A stretch of 64,000 nucleotides of DNA from an uncultured Pseudomonadota bacterium (lineage in GTDB: Bacteria; Pseudomonadota; Alphaproteobacteria; Rhizobiales; Xanthobacteraceae), in NCBI GenBank assembly GCA_963837965.1, contig CAWIPY010000004.1, positions 175,335-239,334 on the forward strand, in the 5' to 3' direction. The notes below the pieces were generated by a model, which was given only the letters and a program-made list of their open reading frames with translations, did not search any database and was not told the DNA's origin. A program made the position numbers and the translations under genes. The stretch's first letter is position 1, and each line of letters opens with the position of its first letter. Below are positions 27,243 through 45,191 of this stretch, piece after piece.

Positions 27243-28082
27243 TCAGTCGTCGTGTATCCCGCTCGTATCTATCCCGCTCGTATCGACTTGGTTTGTAAGG
27301 CCGCCGTCCTTGCGTGAGAGCGGCACATCGAGCGAATAGCGAACGAGATCGGCGCGGTGCACGGTATGCCCCGCGAGCACCAGTCGTCCGTTCGTATCCC
27401 GGTAACGCAAGGTTCGAATCAAGACGGGCGCGCCGGCCGCAAGATGCAGGTACTCGACTTCTTCCGGTCCTGCGATGCCGGCCTCGATGCCAAAGTCGCC
27501 GCTACGAAGCTCGACACGCTGCCAAAGCAAATGCAACGGCGACCCGAGCGCAGAACTTTCGTCCCAGTCGCTGACCAGATCCGCCGGAATGAGTCGGTAA
27601 TCGATCGCGACGGGCACGCGAGCGGCAGCCCGCATTCGCTTAATGAAAAGGATCGGAGTCCCGAGTTCGAGCTCCAATGCGGTCGCTGTCTGCTTATCGG
27701 CAGGTCTGCGCTCGAAAACCAGGACTGTCGGCTGGATCGGGGTCCCGCTCGCCGCCCATTGGCGCATGAAGTCCATGCTCGGCCCGAACCGCTCCTCCAG
27801 CTTGTGGACGGCGACGAAGGTGCCGAGGCCCCGGCTGCGGGTCAGTAGCCCTTCGCGGACCAGCTCCGACAGCGCCTGCCGGACGGTATCGCGGCTGACA
27901 CAGAAGAAGGCGCACAGCTGTTCATCAGAATAGAAGCGGCGGCCCGGCTGATCCCAGCGCAGGATGATTCCGATAAGTCTTTGTTTTATTTGCGCATATA
28001 GCGGTAACGGCGACGCGCGGTCGAGTGGTGGGGTCGTCCACTCATCGTCCAAACTTGTCAGTTTTTCCGACCGATCAGTCAT
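27243..28082 (-). CDS. GntR (HutC/UTRA) transcriptional regulator
   Basis: PLYAQIKQRL, VSRDTVRQALSEL and RGLGTFV; C-terminal UTRA domain; start uncertain. Confidence 0.9.
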   Translation of the reverse strand: MTDRSEKLTSLDDEWTTPPLDRASPLPLYAQIKQRLIGIILRWDQPGRRFYSDEQLCAFFCVSRDTVRQALSELVREGLLTRSRGLGTFVAVHKLEERFGPSMDFMRQWAASGTPIQPTVLVFERRPADKQTATALELELGTPILFIKRMRAAARVPVAIDYRLIPADLVSDWDESSALGSPLHLLWQRVELRSGDFGIEAGIAGPEEVEYLHLAAGAPVLIRTLRYRDTNGRLVLAGHTVHRADLVRYSLDVPLSRKDGGLTNQVDTSGIDTSGIHDD

Positions 28083-28656
28083 AAGCCGAGGACACAACTG
28101 AGATTGCCTGATTGTCTGCTTAATCATACATTCTGGCAAGCTGTTTTCTCTGGCCGAGGAAAAGAAAATATAGTGTCCGCTTGCGCGGCGGCCTTCGGCG
28201 GATCCGGAAAGACTACAGAAACCGACAAAAAACTGCGTGGACTATTCGCGAAATAGATTTCTGCGTCTCGGTGCGCCGAGATGAATATTGCAGTGAATGA
28301 GCCCGGGACTCGTGCCTTACCAATACTGTTTGAATTTTTCCTTTTGCTTCGGCGCGGTCAGCCGATTGGCGCGTTTTGCTCCACGGATCTGGATCGGCAG
28401 TCGATTTGCCATCGTGCGAACTTCCGTCGAGTTGCGATTGCTGTTGAGCGCCAGCGCGGCAGAGGTCGCCCGCGCTGCGAACGAAGCAATGGCTGCGACA
28501 TTGCAGGCTGCCGAAATGGCAACAAGGTCTTCGCGCAAAGTTCGACGGATTTTCCGGCCCAATATGGGACGCTCGCCCGCGTGGCTCTTATCCAAACGAG
28601 GACACTCGCTCACGTGCAGGCGATGGCGGCTTAACGCTTATTGAAGCGGTCGTTGG

Positions 28657-29160
28657 CTAAGGGCATCGGTAATGTGCGGGGCCATTTATGCAGGTGACAT
28701 CGTCGCCCGGCGCGACAGAATTTGCTAGAGGCTGGTTATGAGCCTCTTCGATATGGTCACGGACCTGATGGGTTTCGTTATCCTTGTCAAAGCGGCCATC
28801 GTCTTGGGCGGCGTCATCATAATAGCGGCAATGGGCATATTGGCTTGGCGGGCCATAGCTCGCCTTCAAAAATAATGTTGTAGGCGAATCAAAATGCGCC
28901 TTACCCGAGAATTTCTTGCTCAAGGCATCCGGCGCTTCAGCCGCGTTAGGGTCTGCCCGACGTCCCGTTTGCCTTCCGGCAAAAGCATCATCCGATAGAA
29001 AACATCATCCCATGTGATCGGGAAGTCCCTTGGCCACAAAGCCGAGCCAAGTGTGGAAATTTTTGAGAATAGCGAAATCGACACCGAGCGGCGGTGACCG
29101 GCGGCGAAGCGTGCGCGAACGTCGGTGTCGTCAGCAAGGGTTTGCCTGACGTGTCGGCTC
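28657..29160 (-). pseudogene. Degraded gene of unknown function
   Basis: Protein-like frame VDFAILKNFHTWLGF...HMG*CFLSDDAF...HNQPLAN...CINGPAHYRCP broken by a TGA at 29005-29007, with an apparent frameshift near 29090. Confidence 0.4.
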
Positions 29161-29293
29161 TCAGCCTGCCGGTCCGCGAATATTCTCTGAGATCGGCGCC
29201 CGAAAGGAATCCTTGTGGTCCGTCTATCGGAACGCGGCTTGCTCATCTGCTCGGCAGATCGGCAAAGTGCCAACCATTCAAGCAATTTGGAGT

Positions 29294-29322
29294 TTGACAG
29301 TAGATCGCGCCCGCCTCATGCT
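29294..29322 (+). promoter_or_regulatory. Putative sigma70 promoter of amiCR
   Basis: TTGACA-N17-CATGCT. Confidence 0.55.
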
Positions 29323-29375
29323 ACTTATGGACTTTGGCCGGGGTCCGAATCCAGAGTTCGAAGCAGGGGCCAGCC

Positions 29376-30527
29376 ATGAATCCGAAATCACCGGCAAATA
29401 CGAGCGAGCCGTGGCGCGTTGGCGTTCTCTTCTCCCGCACCGGCTTCATGGCGATCATCGAAGAAACGCAAGTCCATGGCACGTTGATCGCAATCGAAGA
29501 AATCAACGAGCGTGGCGGCATCAATGGCCGCGAACTCGTTCCGGTCATTTACGATCCCGCTTCCGAGAATGCGCTGTTTAGGGCTTATGCGAAGCGCATG
29601 ATCGTTGAAGATCAGCTTTCGACAATCTTTGGTTGCTACACGTCCAGCAGCCGCAAAGCCGTCTTGCCGATCGTCGAGCGGCTGAACTGCCTGCTCTGGT
29701 ATCCGACCCTCTACGAGGGCTTCGAATACTCCCCCAATGTCATCTATACCGGCGCCGCGCCAAACCAGAACAGCGTTTCCCTCTGCCAATTTCTCACCGA
29801 GAAATACGGGAACCGCTTCTACCTTATCGGTTCCGACTACGTATATCCGCGCGAGTCGAACCGGGTGATGCGCGAACTCCTGAACAAACGCGGCGGCCAA
29901 GTCGTCGGTGAGCGCTATGTCGGCCTGCGGGCGTCGCGACGAGACTTCGTCCCGGTCCTCAACGAGATCCGCGAGCTTTCGCCCGACGTCATCTTCTCCA
30001 CGGTCGTGGGCGAAGCCACCATCTACCTCTACCAGGCCTATGCCGATTTCGGGTTCGATCCGCGCAACATGCCGATTGCGAGCCTGACCACTACGGAGAC
30101 CGAAATCCGCGCCATGGGGTCGGACGTGGGCGAGGGCCATATCACGGCGGCGCCTTATTTCGAGGGCTTGCCCGGAGCGGCCAACGACGCCTTTGTGAAG
30201 CGCTACAAGCGCCGCTTTGGCGACGACCAGTCCACCAATATGTGCGTGGAAGCGGCGTATTTTCAGGTCCATCTGTTTGCACGCGCGCTGGAACTCGCCA
30301 ACTCGCTGGATCCGGAGATTCTGCGGCCCATGGTTCTCGGCTCCAGCTTGGAGGCGCCCCAGGGCACTGTTTCGATCGACGCGGGGTGCAGCCATGCCAA
30401 TCTCTGGAGTCGCATCGGCCGGGCAAACGGTCGCGGCCAATTCGACCTGCTGCAGGAATCGTCTTCCCTGGTGCCGCCCGATCCGTTCCTGACCGGAACC
30501 GGCTTCGGCCGGCTGGTCCCAGCGTAA
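29376..30527 (+). CDS. amiC: Cytoplasmic amide sensor AmiC
   Basis: Periplasmic-binding fold without signal peptide; GCYTSSSRKAVLP and YPTLYEG motifs; adjacent to an ANTAR regulator. Confidence 0.88.
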   Translation: MNPKSPANTSEPWRVGVLFSRTGFMAIIEETQVHGTLIAIEEINERGGINGRELVPVIYDPASENALFRAYAKRMIVEDQLSTIFGCYTSSSRKAVLPIVERLNCLLWYPTLYEGFEYSPNVIYTGAAPNQNSVSLCQFLTEKYGNRFYLIGSDYVYPRESNRVMRELLNKRGGQVVGERYVGLRASRRDFVPVLNEIRELSPDVIFSTVVGEATIYLYQAYADFGFDPRNMPIASLTTTETEIRAMGSDVGEGHITAAPYFEGLPGAANDAFVKRYKRRFGDDQSTNMCVEAAYFQVHLFARALELANSLDPEILRPMVLGSSLEAPQGTVSIDAGCSHANLWSRIGRANGRGQFDLLQESSSLVPPDPFLTGTGFGRLVPA

Positions 30528-30542
30528 CGGGAGCGCGCAGCG

Positions 30543-31121
30543 ATGGCGCCGCCGCGGCATGAGACGGAAAAATTATCGGTCCTCGTCGCGGCGGAACGCG
30601 ATGCCCAGGTCGACCTGCTGTTGCGCGAATTGCGGCGAAGCGCCAGCCACGTCATTCACCTGTTTCCGGTGACGGACCGGCTGCCGGCCGAGCACGACAT
30701 CATCCTGGCCGATATCAGTCTCCCATTGTCGGATCAGTTGCCTTGGGTGCCCGGCGAGGCCACCGCCGCGCTGATCCTTCTCCTTCCCGAAAACGGCCAG
30801 CACTCGCTGAAAAAGCTGCGCGCTTGCTGTCCGGACGCGGTGCTCCACCGTCCGTTCCAGCCGAGCGCGATCCTGACGAGCCTGGTGATCGCGCGCAGCC
30901 AGTTCCAGTTCATCCGGCGGCTGCGCAGCCGAATCGCGCGTCTCGACGAGAACATCAAGGCGATTCGCGACATAGAGCGCGCCAAATTGATCGTTATGGA
31001 CATGCGCCGGATCGGCGAAGACGAAGCCTACGCATATTTGCGCAGCCAGGCCATGGAGCGACGCACGACCGTCGCCTCCTTCGCCTCCCATCTTGTTGAC
31101 TCCCACCAACTGCTCGGTTAG
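30543..31121 (+). CDS. amiR: AmiR-type ANTAR antiterminator (pseudo-receiver + ANTAR)
   Basis: C-terminal IERAKLIVM...EDEAYAYLRSQAMERR ANTAR motif. Confidence 0.88.
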   Translation: MAPPRHETEKLSVLVAAERDAQVDLLLRELRRSASHVIHLFPVTDRLPAEHDIILADISLPLSDQLPWVPGEATAALILLLPENGQHSLKKLRACCPDAVLHRPFQPSAILTSLVIARSQFQFIRRLRSRIARLDENIKAIRDIERAKLIVMDMRRIGEDEAYAYLRSQAMERRTTVASFASHLVDSHQLLG

Positions 31122-31150
31122 CTTTCTGTTCGCTGCCCACGCTGGCGGCC

Positions 31151-31233
31151 GCGGCAACAGCGCCGCCTACATCGAAACAGGCATCAAAGCCTCACAACGA
31201 ACCGCCCGTTCGTCGTGGGGCTTTTTGTTTTTT
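31151..31233 (+). promoter_or_regulatory. ANTAR dual-hairpin leader overlapping an intrinsic terminator (site 1)
   Basis: P1 GCGGC-AACAGC-GCCGC; P2 AGGC-ATCAAA-GCCT; terminator AAAGCCTCAC...GTGGGGCTTT plus T tract. Confidence 0.8.
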
Positions 31234-31252
31234 GTTCTGGGAGAACACGAAC

Positions 31253-32506
31253 ATGAGCATAAAGAGGCGTGACTTCCTGAAGGCAACGGCTGCGGCTGGC
31301 GCTGCCGCTTCTTTCGGATTCCCTCACATCTGGATCAAGAACGCCGATCTCGCGCACGCGGCCGGCGGCGAGATCAAGGTTGGCGTACTGTACTCATTGA
31401 CCGGCACCACGGCGATCATCGAGACGTCGCTGAATCAGGCCTGCCTGATGGCGATCGAAGAGATCAACGCCGCCGGTGGCATCAACGGCATGAAGCTGAA
31501 GCCGGTCGTGGAGGATCCCGCCTCCGATCCGGCCACCTTCGCGCAGAAAGCCCGCAAACTCGTCCTCGGCGACAAGTGCGTCAGCGTGTTCGGCTCCTAC
31601 ACCTCGGCGAGCCGCAAGGCCGTGCTGCCGGTCTTCGAGAAGTACCACAATCTCTATTGGTATCCGACCCTCTACGAGGGCCGCGAATGCTCGATGAACG
31701 TGATCTACACGGGCGCAGTGCCCAACCAGCAGCAGCAGGATTTCGTCCCCTGGCTGATGAAGAACTTCGGCAAGAAGTTCTATCTGATCGGGTCGAACTA
31801 CATCTATCCGAAGGAAGAGAACAACGTCTGTAAGATCCTGCTCAAGCGGCTGGGCGGCGAAGTGGTCGGCGAGGAATACGTGCCGCTCGGTCATTCCGAG
31901 TTCAGCTCCGTGATCCAGAAATTCAAGGACACCAAGCCGAACGTCATCTTCTCAACCGTGGTGGGCGACTCCGTGGTGGCGCTGCACCGCCAGTACAAGG
32001 CGGCGGGTCTCGATCCGGCCAAGATGCCGATGGCGAGCCTGACCACGTCGGAAGAGGAAATCGCGGCGATGGGCGGCGAGTTCGCCACCGGGCACTTCAC
32101 CTCGGCGCCGTACTTCATGTCGTACGACTCGCCGGAAAATCACAAGTTCGTCGAGGCCTTCAAGAAGAAATACGGCAAGGACAAGGTGACGAACTTCGTC
32201 TCCGAGCCCGCCTATTTCCAGGTCTACCTGTTCAAACAGGCGGTCGAGAAGCTCGGCGGCAAGAATCTCACCCCGCCCGAAATCCGCAAGGCGGCTTGGG
32301 GTCAGCAATTCAAGGCCCCGCAAGGCCTGGTGAAGATCGACCCGGATAACTCGCATACCTACCTCTGGCCGAAGATCGGCGAGGCCCAGTCGAACGGCCA
32401 GTTCAAGATCATCGAACAGGTCAAGGAATGGGTCGAGCCCAAGCCTTACTGGGCCTATCAGGGGCAGGTCTGCACGCCGACCGGCCTTAAGATGACCAAG
32501 TCATAA
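31253..32506 (+). CDS. urtA: Urea/amide ABC substrate-binding protein, Tat signal
   Basis: MSIKRRDFLK, SLTGTTAIIE, GSYTSASRKAVLP and YPTLYEG motifs. Confidence 0.88.
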   Translation: MSIKRRDFLKATAAAGAAASFGFPHIWIKNADLAHAAGGEIKVGVLYSLTGTTAIIETSLNQACLMAIEEINAAGGINGMKLKPVVEDPASDPATFAQKARKLVLGDKCVSVFGSYTSASRKAVLPVFEKYHNLYWYPTLYEGRECSMNVIYTGAVPNQQQQDFVPWLMKNFGKKFYLIGSNYIYPKEENNVCKILLKRLGGEVVGEEYVPLGHSEFSSVIQKFKDTKPNVIFSTVVGDSVVALHRQYKAAGLDPAKMPMASLTTSEEEIAAMGGEFATGHFTSAPYFMSYDSPENHKFVEAFKKKYGKDKVTNFVSEPAYFQVYLFKQAVEKLGGKNLTPPEIRKAAWGQQFKAPQGLVKIDPDNSHTYLWPKIGEAQSNGQFKIIEQVKEWVEPKPYWAYQGQVCTPTGLKMTKS

Positions 32507-32645
32507 GGCGTCGCAAGGAAGCGCCGAAGTGGCGCAATCCCGCACCTTCGCGATGAAGGTGCGCCGGGCGGGTGCAGGACCTCTTCTGCTGCACCCGCCC
32601 TGGCCCGGGCGCACTTAAAGAACACGTGCCGACGCGGAGCGTTGA

Positions 32646-33518
32646 ATGGCAGATACCCTGAATCAGATCTTCACCGGGCTCAGTATCGCTTCAATCCTTC
32701 TTCTGGTGTCCCTCGGACTTGCCATCATTTACGGCACGATGGGGGTGATCAATCTCGCCCACGGCGAGTTTGTCATGCTCGGCGCCTATTCGGTCTGGTT
32801 TTTGCAGACGATCTTTGGGCTCGATCTTTTGATCTGCGTGGTAATTGCCTTCTTCATGGTTGCCGCAGTCGGTTGGCTTATCGAACGCCTGATCGTCCAG
32901 CATCTCTACAAACGGCCGCTCGATACCATTCTGGCCACATGGGGCGTCGGCGTGATCCTGCAGCAGAGCATCCGGCTCAGCGCAGGTGCCAAGCTGCGCT
33001 ACATAAAGATGCCTGACTGGCTGACCAAAGCTGTGCCTGTATTCGGCGTCGACGTGTCGGCCTACCGGATTTTCATCTTCGCGCTGACGGTCGCGCTGCT
33101 GGCATTCACCTTTTTCCTCATCACCCGCACGCGCTATGGCTTCCGTCTGCGGGCGGTGACGCAGAACGCCGAGGTGGCGCGCTGCTTCGGCATCAACGCT
33201 TCGCGCGTCTATGGGCTCACCTTCGCCTATGGCGCCGGGCTTGCCGGTGTCGCGGGCGCGCTGATCGGTCCGCTGAAGAGCGTTTCGCCCGACATGGGCA
33301 CCAGTGTCGTGGTCGACGCCTTCATGGTGGTGGTGGTCGGCGGCGTATCGAGCCTGCTCGGAACAGTCGCCAGCGCCGGCCTGCTCGGCGAAATGTCGGG
33401 GCTTCTGGCCTATCTCTACAACGACACGCTGGCCAAGGCGCTGGTCTTCTTCGCCGTCGTTATCCTGATCCGGTTCAGGCCGGAAGGCATGTTCACCGTG
33501 CGCGTGCGGCGAGGCTGA
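32646..33518 (+). CDS. urtB: Urea/amide ABC permease
   Basis: GVINLAHGEF, PLDTILATWGV and DAFMVVVVGG motifs. Confidence 0.88.
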   Translation: MADTLNQIFTGLSIASILLLVSLGLAIIYGTMGVINLAHGEFVMLGAYSVWFLQTIFGLDLLICVVIAFFMVAAVGWLIERLIVQHLYKRPLDTILATWGVGVILQQSIRLSAGAKLRYIKMPDWLTKAVPVFGVDVSAYRIFIFALTVALLAFTFFLITRTRYGFRLRAVTQNAEVARCFGINASRVYGLTFAYGAGLAGVAGALIGPLKSVSPDMGTSVVVDAFMVVVVGGVSSLLGTVASAGLLGEMSGLLAYLYNDTLAKALVFFAVVILIRFRPEGMFTVRVRRG

Positions 33519-33521
33519 CCG

Positions 33522-34673
33522 ATGAGTTCATCCAATTACGCGCGCTGGCGGCTGGCGGGCTACCTGCTGTTCTGCGTCCTCATCCTGATCTTTCCGCTGG
33601 TTCTCAACAACGACTACCTGCTCAACAAGTACATGCGCTACCTGGTATTCGGGATTCTGTCGGCGGCGCTGTCCTTTTCGTGGGGCTACACGGGCATCCT
33701 CAATCTCGGCCAGGCAGTGAGTTTCGGGCTCGGCTCCTACGCCATGGCGATGGCGCTCAAGCTGCGTACCATCCCGATCCAGACCGGCGCCAAGGGGCTG
33801 CCGGACTTCATGGTCTGGAACAACGTCAAGACGCTGCCGTGGTTCTGGGAGCCGTTCCATTCCTACGCCTTCGCCATATTCGCCGGCATGGCGGTGCCCA
33901 TGCTGCTCGCCATGCTGCTCGGCTGGTTCATGTTCCGCGGCCGCATTACCGGCGTCTTCGTCGCCATCATCACGCTTGCAATGCTGGTCGTGGTGAACCT
34001 GCTGATCATCGACCAGCAGAAATACACAGGCGGGTTCAACGGCATCACCGACCTCACCACGTTGAAGGTGTTCGGCGTCGCATTCGACGCCTACAGCTCC
34101 AACACCTACTACCTGATTGCAGGCACGCTCTGCGTCGTTCTGCTCGGCGGCCTTGCCATTACCCAGACGAAGACTGGACTGATCTTGCAGGCGATCCGCG
34201 ACGACGAAAACCGCGTTCGCTATTTCGGCTACGACGTCGGCGCTTATCAGATCTTCGCCTTCACCGTGTCCGCCGGCGTCGCCGGTTTTGCCGGCATGCT
34301 CTACACGCTGGTGATGGAATTCGCCTCGCCGACCTTCCTTGCCGTTCCCTTGAGCCTTTCCATCGTGATCTGGTGCGCGGTCGGCGGCCGCAGCTCGCTC
34401 GTCGGTGCCGCCCTCGGCGCCATTCTGGTCACCGGCGTGCAGGGCAATCTGTCTGAATCACCGACCTTTCTCGACACCTGGATGCTGGTCATGGGCGCCA
34501 TTTTCATCGCCGTGGTGCTGTTCCTGCCGAAAGGCCTGATCAGCCTGATCGACATCGGCGCCGAGGCCCTCAATCGCCGGCGGAATCCTTCAGGCGACAG
34601 CCAGTCGAAGCGGCCGGGGACGAAAATCGGCGACGTCGCGCTGCAACGCTCCGACCGCGTGCGAAAGGGCTAA
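33522..34673 (+). CDS. urtC: Urea/amide ABC permease
   Basis: WGYTGILNLGQ, LPDFMVWN...LPWFW and AIRDDENRVRYFGY motifs. Confidence 0.88.
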   Translation: MSSSNYARWRLAGYLLFCVLILIFPLVLNNDYLLNKYMRYLVFGILSAALSFSWGYTGILNLGQAVSFGLGSYAMAMALKLRTIPIQTGAKGLPDFMVWNNVKTLPWFWEPFHSYAFAIFAGMAVPMLLAMLLGWFMFRGRITGVFVAIITLAMLVVVNLLIIDQQKYTGGFNGITDLTTLKVFGVAFDAYSSNTYYLIAGTLCVVLLGGLAITQTKTGLILQAIRDDENRVRYFGYDVGAYQIFAFTVSAGVAGFAGMLYTLVMEFASPTFLAVPLSLSIVIWCAVGGRSSLVGAALGAILVTGVQGNLSESPTFLDTWMLVMGAIFIAVVLFLPKGLISLIDIGAEALNRRRNPSGDSQSKRPGTKIGDVALQRSDRVRKG

Positions 34674-34674
34674 C

Positions 34675-35427
34675 ATGGCGGCTCTTCTCGAAATGCGCGA
34701 CGTGCATGTCAGCTTCAGCGGCTTTCGCGCCGTGTCCGGCCTCGACCTTACCGTCGAACAGGGCGAACTGCGCTGCCTTATCGGCCCGAACGGCGCCGGC
34801 AAGACCACGGCGCTCGACGCCATCTGCGGCAAGGCGAGGGCCGCCGCCGGCGAGATTCTCTACCGCAGCCACAACATCACGCGCTGGCAGGAATACCTCA
34901 TCGCCCGCCTCGGAATTGGCCGCAAGTTTCAAGTGCCGAGCGTGTTCAAGGATTTGACCGTTCGCGAGAACCTGCGCGTCGCCTACTGCAAGCAGCGCGG
35001 AGTCTTCCCGAACCTCGTTCGGGGCCACAATGGCGACAGCGTCGATGGCCTGGAGAAGCTCGCCGAGCTCGTCGGTCTCAAGGACGAACTGCACCGGCCG
35101 GCGCGCCGGCTCTCGCACGGCCAGACGCAATGGCTGGAAACGGCTTTGCTGTTGGCTCAGGACGCCGATCTCATCCTGATGGACGAGCCGACCGCGGGCA
35201 TGACCAGCGCGGAGACCCACAAGACCGCCGAACTGTTCAACCGGTTGAAAGGCCGCCACACCCTCATCGTGGTCGAGCACGACATGGGTTTCGTCAAGGA
35301 GATCGGCGACACCATTTCGGTGATGCATCAGGGACGCATCCTCGCCGAAGGCAAGATCGCCGACATCGAGCAGAACCCGGAAGTGAAACGCGCCTATCTC
35401 GGGTCGGGAGGGATTTCCGGTGCTTGA
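34675..35427 (+). CDS. urtD: Urea/amide ABC ATPase
   Basis: GPNGAGKT, GRKFQVP, LSHGQTQW and DEPTAGM motifs. Confidence 0.9.
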   Translation: MAALLEMRDVHVSFSGFRAVSGLDLTVEQGELRCLIGPNGAGKTTALDAICGKARAAAGEILYRSHNITRWQEYLIARLGIGRKFQVPSVFKDLTVRENLRVAYCKQRGVFPNLVRGHNGDSVDGLEKLAELVGLKDELHRPARRLSHGQTQWLETALLLAQDADLILMDEPTAGMTSAETHKTAELFNRLKGRHTLIVVEHDMGFVKEIGDTISVMHQGRILAEGKIADIEQNPEVKRAYLGSGGISGA

Positions 35428-36115
35428 ACTGATCGACGTCGACGCCTTCTACGGCAACAGCCGCGCACTGCAGGGCGTCAGCATGCAGATCCGCGAAAAG
35501 GAGTTGCTGAGCGTCCTGGGCCGCAACGGCGTCGGCAAGACCACACTGCTGCGCACCATCATCGGCTTGATGGACCGGACGACCGGCGCGTTGCGCCTCG
35601 ACGATCAGGACATCGCGCGCGTGCCCACTGACGAACGCGCCAAGATCGGTATCGCCTATGTGCCGCAAGGGCGGGGCATTCTCCCGAAATTCACCGTTCG
35701 CGAGAATCTCTATCTCGGCCTGTTCGCACGCAAGATCCAGACCACGGTCATCGACGATTTCGTTTTCGAGTTGTTTCCGATGCTCAAGGAGCATCTGGGC
35801 CGGCTCGGCGGAAACCTGTCGGGCGGTCAGCAGCAACAGCTCGCTATCGCCCGCGCCCTGCTGACGGAGCCGAAGATCGTTCTTCTCGACGAGCCGACCG
35901 AAGGCATTCAGCCGAGCATCGTGGAGGAGATCGAGGCCGTCATCTTGAAGCTCAATCGAGAGCACGGCATTGCCGTGGTCCTGGTCGAGCAGAACGTGGC
36001 GTTTGCCCGCCGCGCCTCGCAGCGCTTCGTCATCATGGAGCGCGGCACGATCGCCGCTCAGGGCGACATCGGCGAGCTGAGCGACTCCCTTGTCCACAAA
36101 CACATGACGGTTTGA
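35420..36115 (+). CDS. urtE: Urea/amide ABC ATPase
   Basis: GRNGVGKT, LSGGQQQQ and DEPTEGIQP motifs; GTG start. Confidence 0.9.
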   Translation: MLELIDVDAFYGNSRALQGVSMQIREKELLSVLGRNGVGKTTLLRTIIGLMDRTTGALRLDDQDIARVPTDERAKIGIAYVPQGRGILPKFTVRENLYLGLFARKIQTTVIDDFVFELFPMLKEHLGRLGGNLSGGQQQQLAIARALLTEPKIVLLDEPTEGIQPSIVEEIEAVILKLNREHGIAVVLVEQNVAFARRASQRFVIMERGTIAAQGDIGELSDSLVHKHMTV

Positions 36116-36154
36116 TCCACAGCGCACGCGAGTCCACGAACCAAGGAGAGAGCT

Positions 36155-37192
36155 ATGCTTCACGGCGACATTTCGAGCAGTAACGACACCGTCGGCGTCG
36201 CGGTCGTCAACTACAAGATGCCGCGCATGCACACCAAGAAGGAGGTCCTGGCCAACGCCCAGAACATCGCCGACATGCTGGTCGGCATGAAGACGGGCTT
36301 GCCGGGCATGGATCTGGTCATATTCCCGGAATACAGCACGCACGGGATCATGTACGACCAGAAGGAAATGTACGAAACCGCCTCCAGCGTGCCGGGCGAA
36401 GAGACCGATATCTTCGCCGCCGCCTGCCGCAAGGCCAAGGTCTGGGGCGTGTTCTCGCTGACCGGCGAGCGCCATGAAGACCATCCCAACAAGGCGCCTT
36501 ACAACACCCTCATCCTGATGAACGACAAGGGCGAGATCGTTCAGAAATACCGCAAGATCATGCCGTGGGTGCCGATCGAAGGATGGTATCCCGGCAACTG
36601 CACCTATGTTTCCGAAGGGCCGAAAGGCCTCAAGGTCAGCCTGATCATCTGCGACGACGGCAATTATCCGGAAATCTGGCGCGATTGCGCCATGAAGGGC
36701 GCCGAGCTCATCGTTCGCTGCCAGGGTTACATGTATCCGGCGAAGGACCAGCAGGTGATCATGGCGAAAGCCATGGCCTGGGCCAACAACTGCTATGTGG
36801 CGGTGGCCAATGCCGCAGGGTTCGACGGCGTCTACTCTTATTTCGGCCATTCGGCGATCATCGGCTTCGACGGCCGTACCCTCGGCGAATGCGGCGAAGA
36901 GGACATGGGGATCCAGTACGCGCAGCTCTCCAAGTCGCTGATCCGCGATGCGCGCCGCAACATGCAGTCGGAGAACCACTTGTTCAAGCTGGTGCATCGC
37001 GGCTACACGGGCATGATTAACTCCGGTGAGAGCCCGCGCGGCGTGGCGGCATGCCCATACGACTTCTACCAGCGCTGGATCACCGATCCGGAGGGGACCC
37101 GCGAAAGCGTCGAGGCCCTGACCCGCGCCACAGTGGGCACCGACGAATGCCCGATCGAGGGTATTCCCAACAAGGCGGCCACCCACCGCTAG
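36155..37192 (+). CDS. amiE: Aliphatic amidase (nitrilase superfamily)
   Basis: [24 protein letters not shown] start like Pseudomonas AmiE; PEYS, YRK and ICDD catalytic motifs. Confidence 0.97.
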
Positions 37193-37282
37193 CCGCCGTC
37201 CGCGCCCAGAAGCGAGCCGCCGGCAGGCGTTTTGCAAACTGCCGCGCGGTCCACTCGAGGACCGCGCGGCCACTCTCTGCCT

Positions 37283-38116
37283 ATGGAGTATGCGTTGACC
37301 TCGCCGAATAAGAAGCCGCCGGCCCTCGACGAATTTTATATTCGCGAGGAGCCCTATTACCGCGCCCATGGCGACGAGGTCGCCCTGTTCGAGGCGGCCT
37401 ATGCCAACCGAATCCCGGTCATGCTGAAAGGTCCGACCGGCGTCGGCAAGACCCGCTTCATGGAGCATATGGCGTGGCGACTGAAACGGCCGCTGATTAC
37501 GGTTGCCTGCCACGAGGACATGACCGCTTCCGATCTGGTCGGCCGTTTTCTGCTCGATGCGGAAGGCACCGTGTGGCACGACGGACCGCTGACGCTTGCC
37601 GTCCGCTACGGCGCGATCTGCTATCTCGACGAGGTTGTCGAGGCGCGCCAGGATACCACCGTGGTCATCCATCCGCTGACCGACGACCGCCGGGTGCTGC
37701 CCATCGAGAAACGCAACGAACTCATCCACGCGCATCCCGATTTCGGCCTCGTGGTTTCCTACAATCCGGGCTATCAGAGCGTTCTCAAGGACCTGAAGGA
37801 ATCGACCAAGCAGCGCTTCATCGCCCTCGACTTCTCCTATCCGGATTCCCAATTGGAAGCCGAGATCGTCGCGCACGAGGCCGGGGTTTCCCGCGCCGAG
37901 GCGGAGCGCCTGGTGACGATCGGTCAACGCTCGCGCAACCTGAAGGGCCACGGGCTCGACGAGGGCGCCTCGACCCGCATGTTGATCCATGCCGGCCGCC
38001 TGATGCAGAAGGGCGTCACGTTGCAAAGCGCCTGCACGACCGCCATGGTGTTGCCGATCACTGACGATCCCGATCTCAGAGAGGCGCTGAACGAGGCCAT
38101 CGCCGCGTGCCTTTGA
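37283..38116 (+). CDS. CbbQ/NirQ/NorQ-family AAA+ ATPase
   Basis: [34 protein letters not shown] and EGASTR motifs. Confidence 0.93.
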
Positions 38117-38129
38117 GGGAGGCAGCCCA

Positions 38130-40412
38130 ATGACCGGCGCCGATGCGCTTATTCAAGACTTGTTGGAACGCTCGCGCATTTCGGGCCTGATCGGTCCAAC
38201 ATCGTGGAACACCGTCCAGCGCGCGTTTCCCGGCCTCGCCTTCGAGCGCTGGGTCGACGTCATGGAAAGCCTGATCGACGGCGGCCTCGGCTCGACGACG
38301 GTGCTGAATTTCGTGCAGGCGAGCCCATCGGTTGCACGGCTGATGGGGATCGAGGCGGCACTCACCGTCGGCAAGACAGCCCGGCAAGTTGCCGCCTGCG
38401 CCGGTGGCCAGGCGGCGGCCGCGCTCATTGCCGCCTCGACGCGCGCTGCCGGTCAGGCCAGCGACGAAGCGACGTTTCGTACCTGGCTGGAGATGTTGGC
38501 TGCCGTCGCCGAGCAGGCGCCGGCAGCCGTCCCCGCGCTGCTGCACCGCACGGAACTCGTTCTTTCCGTGCTTGGCCCCGATGCTCTGCGTTCCTGGATT
38601 CTCGTCGGCTTGCGGCTGACCGCCGGTCAGCCGGAGCGAAGCCTTGCCTATTTCTCGCTGGCCGACGCGGACTCCTTGCGGCTGTTCGAGCACGAGGCCG
38701 GCAATGTCGTGCTGGCGACGGTGGAGCGGCGGCTGCGTCATTATCTATCGGCGCTGTGGGGCATCAGGCCGTTCATCCGCGCCACCGGCCAGCGGACGGC
38801 GGTCAAACCGGTGCGGCGCGCGACTTTCGACGGCTTCGTGATCCGGATGCCCGATCACTTTCCCGGCTTTTCCGGACAACAGGCGACCCGTCTCTTCCAT
38901 GCAGCCGTCGCCCATATAGGCGCGCACATGGTGTTCACGCCGCAGCGCTTTCCGGTACGCAGCCTGAAACCGCTGCAGGTGGCGTTGATTTCCCTGATCG
39001 AGGATGCCCGTATCGAAGCGCTGGCCGGCCGCCGGTTCCCCGGGCTGACGCGGCTTTGGCGCACATTCCACGTGGCCGAACCGGAGGGGCCCCTTCTCGC
39101 CCTTCCCCTGATGGCGCGTTTGTCGCGGGCGCTGATCGATCCCGATTACGAGGATCCCGACCCGTGGGTGCGCAAGGGCCGCGCCATGTTCAACGATGCA
39201 CAATCGAACTGGGAAGACCAGGCGATCAGCCGCGAGATCGGCGGCCTGCTCGGCAACGATCTCGGCCAGATGCGCGTTCAGTTCAACCCGAAGACCTACG
39301 TGGTCGAGCCCGCCTATCGTGACGACAACCTCGGCATCTGGGACATGGGTCAGCCGGACGCGCCGCCGTCGGAAGAAACGGACGTCATCGAGCAGGGTGT
39401 GCGCATCAACCGGACCGAAGAGGAGCCCGAGCCGGAGCAGCGCTCGCGCACCGAGCAGGACGAGGCCGGCAATGCGCGCGCGGTGCAGTTGCGCCCAATG
39501 GAAGAGGACACCGGCATTCCGGTCGCCCGCTACGGCGAATGGGACTATGTCACCGGGAGCGAACGGCTCGACTGGGTCACCGTGCAGGAGTTCGAGCCGC
39601 GCGCGGCGCCCGCGCGCATCATCGATCGGGTCCTCGCCGAACATGCCGACGCGCTTTATCGCATTCGCCGCCTGATCAAGTCGGCGCGGGTGAGCCGTCC
39701 GTCGCGGCTGCGCCGCCAGCCGGAAGGCGAGCGCCTCGACCTTCAGGCCTCGATCCAGGCGACGATCGATCGCCGCGCCGGCATCACGCCGGACACGCGG
39801 GTCTACGAGACCATGGAGCTGAAGCACCGCGATCTGTCGGTGATGCTGCTTCTCGATATTTCCGAATCGACAAAGGATACGATCCGCGGCTCCAGCACCA
39901 GCGTGTTCTCCATCGAGATCGCGGCCACGGCGCTCGTCGCAGAGGCCATGACCGGCCTCGGCGATCCCTTTGCCATCAGCGCCTTCTGCTCCAACGGACG
40001 CGAGGAAGTGCGCTACTATCGCGTCAAGGATTTCGAGGCGAGTTACGGCGAGCAGAGCCGGTCGAGGCTCGCCGGTCTGCGCGGCGGCCTGTCGACCCGC
40101 ATGGGCGCTGCGCTGCGGCACGCCGGCCATGAGCTGGCGCAGCAGCAGACCTTCCGCCGGCTGCTGCTGATCGTCACCGACGGCGAGCCCTCCGATACCG
40201 ATGTGAGCGACCGGCGTTACCTCGTGGAAGACGCGCGCAAGGCCGTGCAATCGCTCGCGCATGAGGGCATCGACGTGTTCTGTGTCGGCCTCGACAGCGG
40301 CGGCGACAGCTATCTCACGCGCATCTTCGGCCGGCGCAACGTCATCCAGATCGACAAGGTGACCGCTCTGCCTGAAAAATTGCCGATGCTCTATCTGCGG
40401 CTCGCCGCTTGA
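38130..40412 (+). CDS. NorD/CbbO-type VWA-domain protein
   Basis: EWDY, LLLDISES (MIDAS), STRMGAALRHA and VTDGEP motifs. Confidence 0.9.
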   Translation: MTGADALIQDLLERSRISGLIGPTSWNTVQRAFPGLAFERWVDVMESLIDGGLGSTTVLNFVQASPSVARLMGIEAALTVGKTARQVAACAGGQAAAALIAASTRAAGQASDEATFRTWLEMLAAVAEQAPAAVPALLHRTELVLSVLGPDALRSWILVGLRLTAGQPERSLAYFSLADADSLRLFEHEAGNVVLATVERRLRHYLSALWGIRPFIRATGQRTAVKPVRRATFDGFVIRMPDHFPGFSGQQATRLFHAAVAHIGAHMVFTPQRFPVRSLKPLQVALISLIEDARIEALAGRRFPGLTRLWRTFHVAEPEGPLLALPLMARLSRALIDPDYEDPDPWVRKGRAMFNDAQSNWEDQAISREIGGLLGNDLGQMRVQFNPKTYVVEPAYRDDNLGIWDMGQPDAPPSEETDVIEQGVRINRTEEEPEPEQRSRTEQDEAGNARAVQLRPMEEDTGIPVARYGEWDYVTGSERLDWVTVQEFEPRAAPARIIDRVLAEHADALYRIRRLIKSARVSRPSRLRRQPEGERLDLQASIQATIDRRAGITPDTRVYETMELKHRDLSVMLLLDISESTKDTIRGSSTSVFSIEIAATALVAEAMTGLGDPFAISAFCSNGREEVRYYRVKDFEASYGEQSRSRLAGLRGGLSTRMGAALRHAGHELAQQQTFRRLLLIVTDGEPSDTDVSDRRYLVEDARKAVQSLAHEGIDVFCVGLDSGGDSYLTRIFGRRNVIQIDKVTALPEKLPMLYLRLAA

Positions 40413-40534
40413 GCGGCAGGCGGCGGTTATCAGAAGTTGTGCTGCGCCCGCAAAGGCAACGCGGTGCTCTTTGCCTATTCAGCGATCAGAGTGGCTGGGA
40501 GACGCGCAAGGATATGTCCGAACGGAAAGAGATA

Positions 40535-40563
40535 TTGACAGATTATCGACGTGCCATTAGCCT
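40535..40563 (+). promoter_or_regulatory. Sigma70 promoter
   Basis: TTGACA-N17-TAGCCT, 30 bp upstream of ANTAR site 2. Confidence 0.7.
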
Positions 40564-40593
40564 TCAAGCACGCTCGATTGAATAGTCGAGTTG

Positions 40594-40666
40594 GTGGCAA
40601 CGGCGCCACGCCAATCTAAGGCATCAACGCCTCACGCACGATCGTCGGTCGTGGAGGCGTTTTTTT
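40594..40666 (+). promoter_or_regulatory. ANTAR dual-hairpin leader overlapping an intrinsic terminator (site 2)
   Basis: P1 GTGGC-AACGGC-GCCAC; P2 AGGC-ATCAAC-GCCT; terminator AACGCCTC...GAGGCGTT plus T tract. Confidence 0.85.
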
Positions 40667-40796
40667 ATTTCCGTCCCAGGACCGATTCTCACGTGAGGCG
40701 ACCCCGTTCTGCGGGAAAGGCCCGCAGGCGCAACGCGTCTTGCTGCGTGCGTGCGAGTGGCACGCGCAGGCAGCCAATCGGTAAAAGGGGCAATCC

Positions 40797-42122
40797 ATGA
40801 CGACGACGCCGCATCACGGTGCGCAGATAGAAGAGATAGAGCAAGAAGTCGATCACGTACTCGGCTCCGAATACGAGCATACGCCCGTTCCCATGAGCGC
40901 GCGGCGCAGCATGTTCTCGGTGACCATGGTGTGGATCGGCTTCCCGATGATCATCACCGGAGCGATGACGGGGTCGATCCTGGTGGCCGGCATGGGCTTC
41001 AAGCGCGCGCTTGTCGCCATGATCGTCGGTAACTTGATGATGTTCGCCTATGTCGGCGCGCTCGGCGTTCTCGGCACCCGCCGGGGCATGAACTACGCGC
41101 TGCTCGCCAGCATCGTCTTCGGCCGCAAAGGCTATGTCTTTTCGTCCGGCCTCCTGGCGACGCTGCTGCTCGGCTGGTACGCGGTGCAGACCGGTATCAC
41201 CGGCAATCTCGTCAGCAGCACCTACCACGTCAATTACGTGCTGATGACGGCCATCGCCGGCATTCTCTATATCGGCATCACCTTCATCGGCGTGCGCGGC
41301 CTGCACTGGATCGGAATGATCTCGGTCCCGCTCTTCGTGATCCTCGGCGCGTGGGTGGCAATTGACGCCGCGGCTGGATCGGGCTGGAGCGCGGTCGTCA
41401 ACTATCCCGGCAACAACGGCGCCGCCACCATGTCGATGGGCGTCGGCCTTACCGTGGTATTGACGCTGTTCGTCGATGCCGGGACCGTGACGGCGGACTT
41501 CAATCGATGGGCGAAGGATACGACGAGCTCGCTGGTGTCGACGTTCAGCGCGTTTCCGTTCGCCAATCTGCTCGCCATGTTGGCAGGTGGCGTCATGACT
41601 GCCGCGCTGGCCAAGCCGAACGCCAATCCGTTCGGCGCCGACAACATGTTCGGCTACATGAACAGCATGCAGATGGTGTGGCTGAGCGCCCTGGCGTTCC
41701 TGTTCCTCTACTGCAACCTCGGCTCGGTCTGCTCGCACTGCCTCTATAACGCGGCGACCGGCTGGTCGCGCATCTTCGGCAGCCATATGCGGCTGCTGGC
41801 GGTCATTCTGGGCGCAATCGGCATCGTCATCGCCGCCGGAAACGTCTGGGCCTACTTCATCCAGTGGCTGTCGCTGCTCGGCATCCTGGTGCCGCCGATC
41901 GGGGCGATCATCCTGGTCGATCAGTATGTGCTGCGGCCGAATTCGGACGTCGAAAAGGATTGGCGGTCGTCGGCTTTCATCGCCTGGGCGGCCGGCTCGA
42001 TCGTGGCGTTCTTCGTCAACAGCTATGCCCCGGACTGGTCGACCGCGATCTCCGCTTTCGTGGTGGCAGGCGTCGTCTACTGGGGTCTGGGCGCGTTCAT
42101 GCCCAAGCACGCGTTCGCCTGA
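40797..42122 (+). CDS. NCS1 / cytosine permease (CodB-like)
   Basis: About 12 TM segments; VPMSARR, GWYAVQTG and LVPPIGAIILVD motifs. Confidence 0.88.
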   Translation: MTTTPHHGAQIEEIEQEVDHVLGSEYEHTPVPMSARRSMFSVTMVWIGFPMIITGAMTGSILVAGMGFKRALVAMIVGNLMMFAYVGALGVLGTRRGMNYALLASIVFGRKGYVFSSGLLATLLLGWYAVQTGITGNLVSSTYHVNYVLMTAIAGILYIGITFIGVRGLHWIGMISVPLFVILGAWVAIDAAAGSGWSAVVNYPGNNGAATMSMGVGLTVVLTLFVDAGTVTADFNRWAKDTTSSLVSTFSAFPFANLLAMLAGGVMTAALAKPNANPFGADNMFGYMNSMQMVWLSALAFLFLYCNLGSVCSHCLYNAATGWSRIFGSHMRLLAVILGAIGIVIAAGNVWAYFIQWLSLLGILVPPIGAIILVDQYVLRPNSDVEKDWRSSAFIAWAAGSIVAFFVNSYAPDWSTAISAFVVAGVVYWGLGAFMPKHAFA

Positions 42123-42203
42123 ACTCACGAATGACACGAGGGCGCGCCGCCGAGCGGCGCGTCCTCGCGTGAATCAACCAGCAAGACGATGGACTGTAGG
42201 ACC

Positions 42204-43223
42204 ATGACAATAGACTATGAAATATATGATTTGGGCGACGTGCAGCTTCAGCGCGGCGCGACGCTGCGCGATTGCAAGCTCGCCTACAAGACGTTTGGCA
42301 AGCTCAACGCCGACAAGAGCAACGCCATCGTCTATCCGACTTGGTACTCGGGCCAGCACTACGACAACGAATGGCTGGTCGGGAAAGGCATGGCGCTCGA
42401 TCCCGACAAGTATTTCATCATCATCCCCAATATGTTCGGCAACGGCCTCTCGACCTCGCCGAGCAACACGCCGCCACCCTATAACGGCCCGCGCTTTCCG
42501 CAGGTCACCATGTACGACAATGTGCGCGCGCAGCACCGCCTGGTCACCGAGAAGTTCGGCATCAAGAAGCTCAAGATGGTCCTCGGCTGGTCAATGGGCG
42601 CCGGGCAGACCTTTCAGTGGGGCGCGCTCTACCCCGACATGATGGAGTTTCTGGTGCCGTTCTGCGGCTCGGCAAAATGCGCGCGCCACAACTTCGTCTT
42701 TCTCGAAGGCGTCAAGGCGGCGCTGACCGCGGACGCGGCTTTCAACGAAGGCTGGTACAAGGAGCAGCCCAACAAAGGCCTGCGCGCCGCGGCGCGCGTC
42801 TATGCCGGCTGGGGCTTCTCTCAGGCCTTCTATCGCCAGGAGCTTGACATCAAGGCCCTCGGCTTTTCCTCGCTCGAGGATTTCCTGGTCGCATTCTGGG
42901 AAGGCTTCTTCATGCCGAAGGACGCCAACAACCTGCTGACCATGCTGTGGACCTGGCAGTACAGCGACCTCAGCGCCAACGAACTCTACAACGGCGACGT
43001 CAAGAAGGCGCTGGGCGCGATCAAGGCGAAAACCTACGTCATGCCCGGAAAGACCGATCTCTACTTCCCGCCGGAGGACAGCGAGAACGAAGTGGCCAAC
43101 ATGCCCAACGCCGAGCTCATACCGATCCCGTCGGTCTGGGGTCACTTCGCGGGCGGTCCGGGCACCAATCCCGACGACGTGAAGTTTCTGGACCAGAAAC
43201 TGAAGGAGCTTCTGGGAAGCTAG
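42204..43223 (+). CDS. Homoserine O-acetyltransferase-like alpha/beta hydrolase
   Basis: LAYKTFG, PNMFGNG, GWSMG, TDLYFPPED and WGHFAG (Ser/Asp/His) motifs. Confidence 0.85.
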   Translation: MTIDYEIYDLGDVQLQRGATLRDCKLAYKTFGKLNADKSNAIVYPTWYSGQHYDNEWLVGKGMALDPDKYFIIIPNMFGNGLSTSPSNTPPPYNGPRFPQVTMYDNVRAQHRLVTEKFGIKKLKMVLGWSMGAGQTFQWGALYPDMMEFLVPFCGSAKCARHNFVFLEGVKAALTADAAFNEGWYKEQPNKGLRAAARVYAGWGFSQAFYRQELDIKALGFSSLEDFLVAFWEGFFMPKDANNLLTMLWTWQYSDLSANELYNGDVKKALGAIKAKTYVMPGKTDLYFPPEDSENEVANMPNAELIPIPSVWGHFAGGPGTNPDDVKFLDQKLKELLGS

Positions 43224-43245
43224 TCGAGCTCACGGGGAGAATGGC

Positions 43246-44691
43246 ATGGCGGGCGTTGGTGAAATCTGCCGCATGGACGCGGTCAGTATTGCGAAGGCGG
43301 TGCGTGAGAAGAAGTTGTCGCCGGTGGAGGTGGTCGACGCTTCGCTTTCGGCAATGGACGAACTGGAGCCGAAGCTGCACGCCTTTTGCACGCCGACGCC
43401 CGACCTTGCGCGCGCCCGCGCCAAGGAGATCGAGCGGGACATTGCCGCCGGCAAGCCGGTCGGACCGCTTGCCGGCGTTCCCATCGGGATCAAGGATCTG
43501 GTCTGCACCAAGGGCATCGCCACCGTCTCCGGCTCCGTCGCCTATCGCGATTTCGTCCCCGATGAAGACGACGTGGTGGTCGAGCGTCTTGTCGCGGCCG
43601 GCGCCGTGATCGTCGGCAAGACGAACGTGCCTGAGTTCGGCTACAGCGGCGTCGGCCATAATCCGGTGTTCGAGACCACGCGCAACCCGTGGAACACCGA
43701 GATGACATCGGGCGGGTCGAGCGCCGGCTCGGGCGCCGCCGTCGCCGCGGGCATGTGTCCCTTCGCCATCGGCAGCGACGGCGGCGGATCGGTCCGCATT
43801 CCGGCCGCGCATTGCGGCCTCTATGGTCTCAAGGCGTCCATGGGGCGCGTTCCGCTCTATCCGGGCACCAAGGACGAACGTTACCCCGGCGTCTCGAGTT
43901 GGGAGAGCCTCGAACATATCGGCCCCATCAGTCGGACGGTGGCCGACAGCGCGCTGATGATGTCGGTGATCGCCGGTCCCGATCCGCGCGATCGGAACAG
44001 CCTGCCGGAGGCTTCGTTCGACTGGACCAAATGCGCCGAGGGCGATCTCAAGGGCCTTAAGGTGGCCTACAGCCCGGACTGGGGCTATGCCGCGGTCGAT
44101 CCGCGCGTGCGCAAGATCGTCGGCGATGCCGTTCGGGTCTTCGAACGGGATCTCGGCTGCAGCGTGGAAGAGGCGCATCCCGGATGGGACGATCCCTACG
44201 CCGCGTTCTGGGGCATCGTTGCCGCCGAATCCGACCTGGTCGGCCTGCGCGCGATGGCGGACAAGTATGAAGCGCAGATGACGCCGCACGTGGTCGATTT
44301 CATCCGCCGCAATTGGACCGCCGAAGAGCTCACAAGCGCGGTGATGGGCCGCAAGGCGGTTAATAACAAGATGTGGCGTTTCATGCAGAAATACGATCTG
44401 CTGTTGACGCCGACGCTGGCCGTGCCGGCGTTCCCCGTGCACGTCCAGGGGCCCGAGAAGATCGACGGGCAAATCGTGGCGCCGTTCCGTTGGCTGGCAT
44501 TCACGTTCCCGCTGAATCTGACGGGTCAGCCGGCGGCGACCGTCCCGGCCGGCTGGACCGAAGACGGGCTGCCCGTCGGCATGCAGATCATCGGCCGCCA
44601 CCTGGACGATCCGCTGGTCTTGCGCGCCTCGGCGGCATTCGAGCAGGCGCAGCCCTGGAAGGACCGCTGGCCGCCGATTTCTGTCGACTGA
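43246..44691 (+). CDS. Amidase-signature family amidase
   Basis: [19 protein letters not shown] and [12 protein letters not shown] (Ser-cisSer-Lys triad) motifs. Confidence 0.93.
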
Positions 44692-45183: not shown

Positions 45184-45191
45184 TTCTTGCT

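Follow-up and report, generated by a model that had tools for sequence, protein, structure and literature searches.

Two dual-hairpin leaders probably controlled by AmiC/AmiR at the amide operons of an uncultured Xanthobacteraceae bacterium

The amide locus and its two leaders

We analyzed a 64,000-nucleotide (nt) stretch of contig CAWIPY010000004.1 (GenBank assembly GCA_963837965.1, positions 175,335 to 239,334), hereafter the window, from an uncultured member of the Xanthobacteraceae. Two leaders in it, site 1 (31151-31233) and site 2 (40594-40666), each carry two short tandem hairpins, P1 and P2, followed by an intrinsic terminator that overlaps P2. We estimate a probability of about 0.8 that both are ANTAR-type attenuators through which the AmiC/AmiR pair encoded at 29376-31121 controls two operons. 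The arrangement is found at these two places only in the genome, is conserved with covariation in relatives, and co-occurs exclusively with one AmiR subfamily. The genes and candidate promoters of the locus, all on the plus strand, are listed below.

29295..29323, plus: putative sigma-70-like amiC-amiR promoter, TTGACA-17 nt-CATGCT (read by eye, weak consensus match)
29376..30527, plus: amiC-like gene for a cytosolic ligand sensor (Peripla_BP_5, PF13433, 4e-138, 461 bits)
30543..31121, plus: amiR, ANTAR antiterminator with an AmiR_N pseudo-receiver (Pfam)
31253..36115, plus: UrtA/FmdD-like ATP-binding cassette (ABC) importer (Pfam and NCBIfam), comprising the next three lines
31253-32506, plus: binding protein with a twin-arginine translocation (TAT) signal
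32646-33518 and 33522-34673, plus: two permeases
34675-35427 and 35420-36115, plus: two ATPases
36155..37192, plus: aliphatic amidase AmiE (NCBIfam NF009802 equivalog, 725 bits against a cut-off of 427)
37232-38116, plus: CbbQ/NorQ-type AAA ATPase in the amiB position (Pfam CbbQ_C, AAA_5)
38130-40412, plus: VWA-domain partner of 760 amino acids (Pfam VWA)
40536..40564, plus: putative operon 2 promoter, TTGACA-17 nt-TAGCCT (read by eye)
40797..44691, plus: operon 2 (Pfam and NCBIfam), comprising the next three lines
40797-42122, plus: NCS1/cytosine-type permease
42189-43223, plus: MetX-like alpha/beta hydrolase
43246-44691, plus: amidase-signature amidase

The likely start of amiC is the ATG at 29376, which gives the N-terminus MNPKSPANTSEPWRVGVLF without a signal sequence. 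The protein is UrtA-like, yet it scores under the NCBIfam urea-binding cut-off. Sixteen bases after amiC begins amiR, whose product exceeds the Pfam cut-offs for both ANTAR (7.7e-13, 48 bits) and AmiR_N (7e-11, 42.5 bits) and has Rv1626, EutV and Pseudomonas aeruginosa AmiR as relatives in the PDB. The importer starts twenty nucleotides past the U-tract of site 1, and its binding protein bears a TAT signal, unlike the AmiC-like protein. Site 2 lies within a 384-nt gap 3' of the VWA gene. The two genes at 37232-40412, after amiE, resemble a MoxR/NorQ-NorD-type activase pair within an amidase operon. Upstream of the amiC region, a GntR/UTRA-family regulator gene (27243-28139, minus strand) forms part of a neighbouring catabolic operon.

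Two hexaloop hairpins overlap a terminator at each site

The elements of the two leaders, from sequence and folding, are as follows.

31132..31149, plus: P0 hairpin, GCUGCC...GGCGGC, between the amiR stop and P1, in the minimum-energy fold
31151..31166, plus: site 1 P1, GCGGC-AACAGC-GCCGC, 5 bp, hexaloop with A1 and A4
31179..31192, plus: site 1 P2, AGGC-AUCAAA-GCCU, 4 bp, hexaloop with A1 and A4
31186..31233, plus: site 1 intrinsic terminator and U-tract (stem 31186-31224, core 31189-31221)
40594..40609, plus: site 2 P1, GUGGC-AACGGC-GCCAC, 5 bp, canonical A1/G4 hexaloop
40619..40632, plus: site 2 P2, AGGC-AUCAAC-GCCU, 4 bp, hexaloop with A1 and A4
40626..40666, plus: site 2 intrinsic terminator and U7 (stem 40626-40661, U7 at 40660-40666)

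An initial annotation of this DNA had described a recurring layout of a 5-bp P1, a hexaloop, a linker of 9-12 nt and P2, and we found it accurate in every detail. P1 of site 1 begins 29 nt past the amiR stop. Site 1 has a linker of 12 nt and site 2 one of 9 nt, and the P1 stems differ by a compensatory change of a C-G pair at site 1 to U-A at site 2. The sites share a 17-mer, AGGCATCAANGCCTCAC, the stretch already singled out as common to both (AGGCAUCAANGCCUCAC); it has exactly two copies in the window, against 0 in 100 shuffles.

When the full leaders were folded, P1 was in the minimum-energy structure at both sites and the terminator beat P2. The terminators fold with free energies of -22.9 kcal/mol at site 1 (z -3.8) and -20.2 kcal/mol at site 2 (z -4.4), with 0/200 shuffles as good in either case. 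At site 1, A-U pairs lengthen the core at 31189-31221 to 31186-31224, and the U-tract at 31222-31233 reads UUUUUGUUUUUU. The folds bear out the earlier statement that the 3' strand of P2 is also the 5' strand of the terminator: the GCCU of P2 pairs at the base of the terminator stem, beside the U-tract, with GGGC at site 1 and AGGC at site 2. P2 formed at both sites only when the 3' half of the terminator was withheld, which is the behaviour expected of an antiterminator that needs stabilization by a protein.

The joint P1...P2 pattern occurs at two places only in the 5.1-Mb genome, and a reversed control gave 0 matches. A third match to the P2 core (locus L001) was rejected as a leader, as it has no P1, no terminator and no signs of a module. 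An Rfam cmscan of 28000-46000 at E<=10 returned no ANTAR-type family and only three sub-threshold M23 matches. A structure-only scan for two hairpins and a T-run was too unspecific, giving many candidates in the window and missing site 2 because of its bulged terminator; it was superseded by a fold-checked scan and a covariance model, R1, described below.

Some features adjoin the modules. The P0 hairpin is kept in three close relatives, where GCUGCC to GCCGCC changes preserve its pairing, and a GCGGC repeat next to it permits an alternative register for P1. The promoter-like sequence before site 2 is conserved in Pseudolabrys (locus L041), and sequence farther upstream diverges. Between the U-tract of site 2 and the permease start lies a GC-rich spacer of 130 nt (40667-40796) with inverted repeats and, on the minus strand, sub-threshold M23 RNA matches; Mesorhizobium locus L046 has a spacer of similar length.

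The modules are conserved, have covarying stems and co-occur with one AmiR subfamily

To collect relatives, an AmiR alignment was scanned against one genome per species, which gave 31 loci. The closest AmiR proteins are from metagenome-assembled genomes (MAGs) of Pseudolabrys (93% identity), a Hyphomicrobiales bacterium (89%) and Methylocella (84%), and those at 37-45% identity come from many Mesorhizobium/Phyllobacteriaceae, Rhizobium and a few gammaproteobacterial MAGs. In all 30 loci with downstream sequence, P1 and P2 hairpins lie directly 3' of the amiR stop, and 28 of these 30 also have the overlapping terminator. The other two, gammaproteobacterial MAG loci L058 and L067, showed no clear terminator. 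Their loops are AACGAA or AACGAC in P1 and AACAAA or AACAAG in P2, with a long AT-rich spacer before the binding-protein gene, and control there may work differently. P1 is identical to that of site 1 in L041, L042 and L012, and L043 differs by a single G-U pair. The P1 loop AACAGC is unchanged in the orthologous locus L012, where AmiR identity has fallen to 54%.

We aligned 33 curated modules with the structure given. In this alignment 96.6% of cells pair, and sliding the partner by 1-3 columns lowers the figure to 35-53%. As the modules were chosen as hairpins, the paired percentage is partly so by construction; the compensatory changes are not. Four of the nine pairs have changed on both sides. 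P1 stems include GCGGC/GCCGC, GUGGC/GCCAC, GCAGC/GCUGC and ACGGC/GCCGU, and a further compensatory stem variation is GGC/GCC against GGU/ACC.

The covariance model R1, whose training set held both window sites and most orthologous modules, scores site 1 at 49.6 bits (31149-31195) and site 2 at 42 bits (40592-40635). The next match in the 5.1-Mb genome reaches only 23.9 bits (E 0.25), so that a covariance search leaves just the two sites and the regulon, as far as the motif goes, consists of two operons. Outside the training set, the site 2 orthologue of Pseudolabrys scores 40.6 bits and has the P2 loop AAUAAC. R1 also found non-training modules, each followed by a terminator, about 4 kb upstream of amiR in Mesorhizobium-type loci, with P1 GGUGGC-AACGRG-GCCACC and P2 AGGC-AAAAAG/AAAAGG/AAGAAG-GCCU. 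In L046 the genes behind this module encode a cytosine-type permease and an alpha/beta hydrolase, and amiC-amiR comes immediately after them. The Mesorhizobium upstream module thus shares with window site 2 both the permease-hydrolase gene pair and the GUGGC/GCCAC stem of P1, which indicates that a two-operon AmiR regulon is conserved across the order while gene order differs.

For a phylogenetic profile we took a sample of 301 genomes of the order, with E below 1e-40 defining an AmiR orthologue and E<=1e-3 an R1 match. Of the 6 genomes that encode an orthologue, 5 gave R1 matches, against 0 of the 295 others (Fisher 3e-10). In the sixth genome with an orthologue (G190), a module with loops AACAUC and GCCAGA is present and scores lower.

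Mesorhizobium and its relatives (L046, L048, L050-L057, L059-L064, L068 and L071) carry tandem dual-hairpin/terminator modules between amiR and the binding-protein gene, at about 10560-10800. Loops in the first module are canonical (AAYGNN); in the second, the P1 loop is degenerate, 5-6 nt long and variable in its letters, and P2 is rich in A4. Four loci (L057 8483, L059 8375, L063 8520, L064 8422) have an R1-type module with terminator about 1.5 kb upstream of amiR, directly before amiC, which suggests positive autoregulation of the regulator genes.

A second AmiC/AmiR pair

The genome encodes only two ANTAR proteins. The other belongs to a second AmiC/AmiR pair on the minus strand of contig C11 (locus L010, about G000:C11:172600-175400), with Peripla_BP_5 in the sensor and AmiR_N (143 bits) plus ANTAR in the regulator. 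A dual-hairpin/terminator leader belonging to this pair lies about 230 nt downstream, with a CN-hydrolase gene behind. The loops of this leader read as hexaloops CGGGCG and UAGGCA and are thermodynamically tetraloops. Among its relatives in the order, P1 loops include AGGAUU, AGCGUU and AGGGCU and the P2 loop is UAUGNA, and the C11 type looks like a distinct, apparently undescribed leader family.

Position 4 of the loops is always a purine

The definition of an ANTAR target given in Ramesh 2012 comprises two tandem stem-loops with stems of at least 3 bp, hexaloops with A at position 1 and G at position 4, a short linker (5-12 nt for eut, widened to 2-25 nt by later searches), and mutual exclusivity of the P2 3' strand and the terminator. 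Both sites have two such stem-loops, of 5 bp in P1 and 4 bp in P2, together with the hexaloops, the A1, the linker and the exclusivity. The G4 is absent from three of the four loops. The loops of sites 1 and 2 in order are AACAGC, AUCAAA, AACGGC and AUCAAC; all four start with A, and, as the initial annotation stated, only AACGGC (site 2 P1) has G4, the other three having A4. Reading the loops in other registers was tried and discarded: neither P2 loop has a G and the only G of the site 1 P1 loop is at position 5, so that no register yields G4.

We then tallied loop letters over 58 R1-aligned modules, many of them from Mesorhizobium loci, which provided 56 P1 and 56 P2 hexaloops.

P1 position 1: A 47, G 9
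P1 position 4: G 47, A 9
P2 position 1: A 44, G 12
P2 position 4: A 32, G 24

Across these 112 hexaloops there are 0 pyrimidines at position 1 or 4. A canonical P1 loop (A1 and G4) is present in 38/58 modules, and A1/G4 in both loops in only 16/58. Among 25 non-training matches, the 23 with a hexaloop P2 comprise 19 with A4 and 4 with G4. The window clade contributes six P2 loops, taken from four genomes, in which A is invariant at positions 1 and 4 and the remaining positions (2, 3, 5 and 6) vary. P2 loops of two further ANTAR subfamilies in this order, the second AmiC/AmiR type and the NasT-like proteins, lack A1 and have G4 in 20/20 cases; the contrast between A4 in P2 loops of the window-type AmiR and G4 in those subfamilies is significant when uncorrected for phylogeny (Fisher 2e-6). 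The subfamilies have separate loop signatures, namely A or G at positions 1 and 4 for the window AmiR, U1/G4 for the second AmiR type, and G or U at position 1 with G4 for NasT-like systems.

The A1/G4 rule originates with NasR and EutV, and the EutV-target changes G32A and G56A lower induction and binding (PMC3369931). In the EutV-RNA structure, G4 is the sole base read specifically; it stacks on Tyr164 and hydrogen-bonds to Arg142, Lys149 and Glu160 (PMC8934654). The window AmiR keeps EutV Lys149, Glu160 and Tyr164 as Lys148, Glu159 and Tyr163, and has Ile at the Arg142 position. We considered this Ile as the cause of the altered loops and rejected it. Orthologues with canonical loops have a hydrophobic residue there too, and the strict-G4 NasT-like proteins mostly Val or Ile, with one Asn; a position that is mostly hydrophobic across loop types explains nothing.

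The odd loop letters are typical of the whole AmiR subfamily and not peculiar to this genome. The variant code in the initial annotation therefore stands in part: the loops do depart from A1/G4, A4 being the very change that impairs EutV, but this is normal for the subfamily. A relaxation to purine at position 4 that is specific to the window-type AmiR subfamily is plausible. Since one AmiR must serve both the AACAGC and AACGGC P1 loops, a specificity relaxed to purine fits better than a different code.

Proposed mechanism and alternatives

The idea that two switches place two operons under AmiR is well supported by gene context, conservation, covariation and co-occurrence with AmiR; that they do so by a variant code is supported only in part. 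We infer AmiR binding, an amide signal and a relaxed base preference, and the position of site 1 suggests that it governs the AmiE operon.

By default, the nascent leader would fold into the strong terminator, and the transcript would stop after amiR at site 1 or soon after the operon 2 promoter at site 2. In P. aeruginosa, release of AmiR from AmiC upon amide binding is established. By analogy, a small amide would bind the AmiC of the window and free AmiR, whose dimer would bind first the P1 and then the P2 hexaloop on the nascent RNA. Closing P2 (AGGC/GCCU) would take away from the terminator the four nucleotides at the foot of its stem, beside the U-tract. The remaining upper stem, now 4 nt off the U-tract, could not terminate, and RNA polymerase would read through. 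Read-through at site 1 would activate the amide ABC importer genes, amiE and the CbbQ/VWA pair, and at site 2 the NCS1 permease, the MetX-like hydrolase and the amidase. As site 1 doubles as the amiCR terminator, the regulators would be made constitutively and the structural genes on induction only. The AmiR subfamily would tolerate A or G at loop position 4, chiefly in P2.

Several points weigh against this reading. Among public sequencing runs that hold this sequence, all are labelled DNA, mostly soil and wetland metagenomes, and RNA-seq for the organism was not found. The membership of the R1 training set makes the high scores so by construction, leaving the non-training matches and the absence of others as the informative part. 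Likewise, the loop tallies are uncorrected for phylogeny and lean on Mesorhizobium. Comparison of the ANTAR domain with EutV, the orthologues and NasT-like proteins did not find a residue change that explains an altered base preference. Because a G4-to-A change cuts EutV binding and induction, the A4 loops could by analogy be weak or unbound sites, with AmiR working mainly via P1. The second AmiC/AmiR pair may leave room for cross-talk.

What the loop letters do is a separate matter from whether the sites are attenuators. We tentatively propose that the AmiR subfamily reads a purine at positions 1 and 4, that the loop letters act as a specificity code insulating paralogous antiterminators, and that the mix of A4 and G4 tunes attenuator strength; this is possible, and we would not put it higher. 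The rival account, which we find somewhat unlikely, accepts both sites as genuine AmiR attenuators and holds that the A4 loops, especially in P2, are not base-read, AmiR seeing P1 and the hairpin shape. An A4 P2 would then be a deliberately weak or structural second site that sets the induction threshold, with no changed code. It gains from the mostly canonical P1 and loose P2, from the distal P1 loop of the Mesorhizobium tandem modules, whose length varies between 5 and 6 nt, and from EutV, where the contacts are mostly to the backbone with one flipped base and G4-to-A weakens binding. However, P2 position 4 is a pyrimidine in 0/56 hexaloops, and in the window clade it stays an invariant A as its neighbours drift, which together argue for selection on that base. 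Furthermore, P1 of site 1 also has A4, kept down to 54% AmiR identity.

That the C11 paralogue reads the leaders, alone or alongside the adjacent AmiR, is very improbable. The genome does hold that second pair, and most RNA-contact residues are common to ANTAR domains. But the C11 AmiR has a separate leader before a CN-hydrolase gene of its own, P2 loops remain U1/G4 in its relatives, R1 does not detect its leader, and across genomes the window-type module tracks the window-type AmiR. Least credible of all are ordinary terminators, ending amiCR at site 1 and the amidase operon at site 2 with incidental small hairpins and no regulated read-through: each is a strong terminator at the end of a gene, and the loose structure-only scan did yield many dual-hairpin candidates, but the P1-linker-P2-terminator register is kept after amiR in 28/30 loci with compensatory changes, the module is confined to genomes with the window-type AmiR subfamily and recurs before permease-hydrolase genes despite differing gene order, and the downstream genes begin 20-130 nt past the U-tract in the same orientation.

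Comparison with known systems

Among the closest known systems is AmiC/AmiR of P. aeruginosa, which likewise combines a cytosolic Peripla_BP_5 amide sensor with an AmiR_N/ANTAR antiterminator. Its amiE leader (amiL) contains a Rho-independent terminator that is bypassed on induction, and a CbbQ/NorQ-type ATPase follows AmiE here where amiB follows amiE there (PMC12591593). The window AmiR and its P. aeruginosa counterpart give only a weak alignment (29 bits, E 6e-6). The gene order differs, being amiC-amiR-leader-ABC importer-amiE in the window and leader-amiE-amiB-amiC-amiR-amiS in P. aeruginosa. Also unlike P. aeruginosa, the attenuator here terminates amiCR as well, a second operon has a second leader, and a UrtA-like ABC importer stands in place of AmiS. 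The P. aeruginosa amiE P2 as printed in Fig. S1 of Ramesh 2012, AGAGC-AAAUGG-GCUCU, is itself not a clean A1/G4 loop (PMC3369931).

The eutP/G/S/A leaders read by EutV in Enterococcus faecalis (PMC3369931, PMC8934654) resemble the window sites in having two short hexaloop hairpins with a linker of 5-12 nt, a P2 that overlaps the terminator 5' strand, and default termination relieved by protein-stabilized antitermination. EutV targets have A1/G4 in both loops, whereas here A4 is found in 3/4 loops, and EutV is a phosphorylated response regulator, whereas AmiR is controlled by sequestration on AmiC. NasR/nasF of Klebsiella oxytoca and the alphaproteobacterial NasS-NasT-type leaders also pair an attenuator of two hairpins with an ANTAR protein. 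In NasT-like loci of the order, P2 overlaps the terminator as it does in the window. Their P2 loops are GAUGCA, GAAGCA or UGUGCA, with G4 in 9/9 and G or U at position 1, and, unlike here, they control other genes in response to nitrate/nitrite.

The predicted dual stem-loops of actinobacterial ANTAR-target RNAs have A1 and G4 conserved in little over 50% (PMC8164766), so that departures from the consensus are already acknowledged bioinformatically. Unlike the window sites, most of these RNAs overlap ribosome-binding sites and affect translation, few have terminators, and a subfamily-specific purine-4 rule is not described for them. The MeAmi operon of Mesorhizobium sp. AP09 is similar to the first operon of the window in that an AmiC/AmiR-like pair precedes an amide ABC importer and an amidase, although its binding protein is of the SBP_bac_5 family. 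Its authors could not identify canonical dual-hexaloop motifs (bioRxiv 10.1101/2024.02.22.581678), which leaves AmiR-type targets outside Pseudomonas undescribed; a 2025 review gives AmiR targets for P. aeruginosa alone (PMC12591593). In the literature searched, we came across neither the purine-4 pattern nor the two-operon regulon of the window.

ANTAR regulators are widespread, and their RNA targets have been sought by the A1/G4 rule from EutV and NasR. The conserved, terminator-coupled targets of this AmiR subfamily break the G4 part of that rule consistently, position 4 being always a purine and often A. If this pattern holds, it would explain the absence of canonical motifs at some alphaproteobacterial AmiC/AmiR operons, widen the search model for ANTAR regulons, and provide a natural set of A4/G4 hairpins for studying how ANTAR proteins read the flipped base. 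The two-operon amide regulon, with importer and AmiE on one side and NCS1 permease, MetX-like hydrolase and amidase on the other, is conserved across the Hyphomicrobiales despite rearrangement, which points to a common amide substrate. Set beside the known systems, the two sites are unremarkable representatives of an undescribed variant class within a known type of regulatory RNA.

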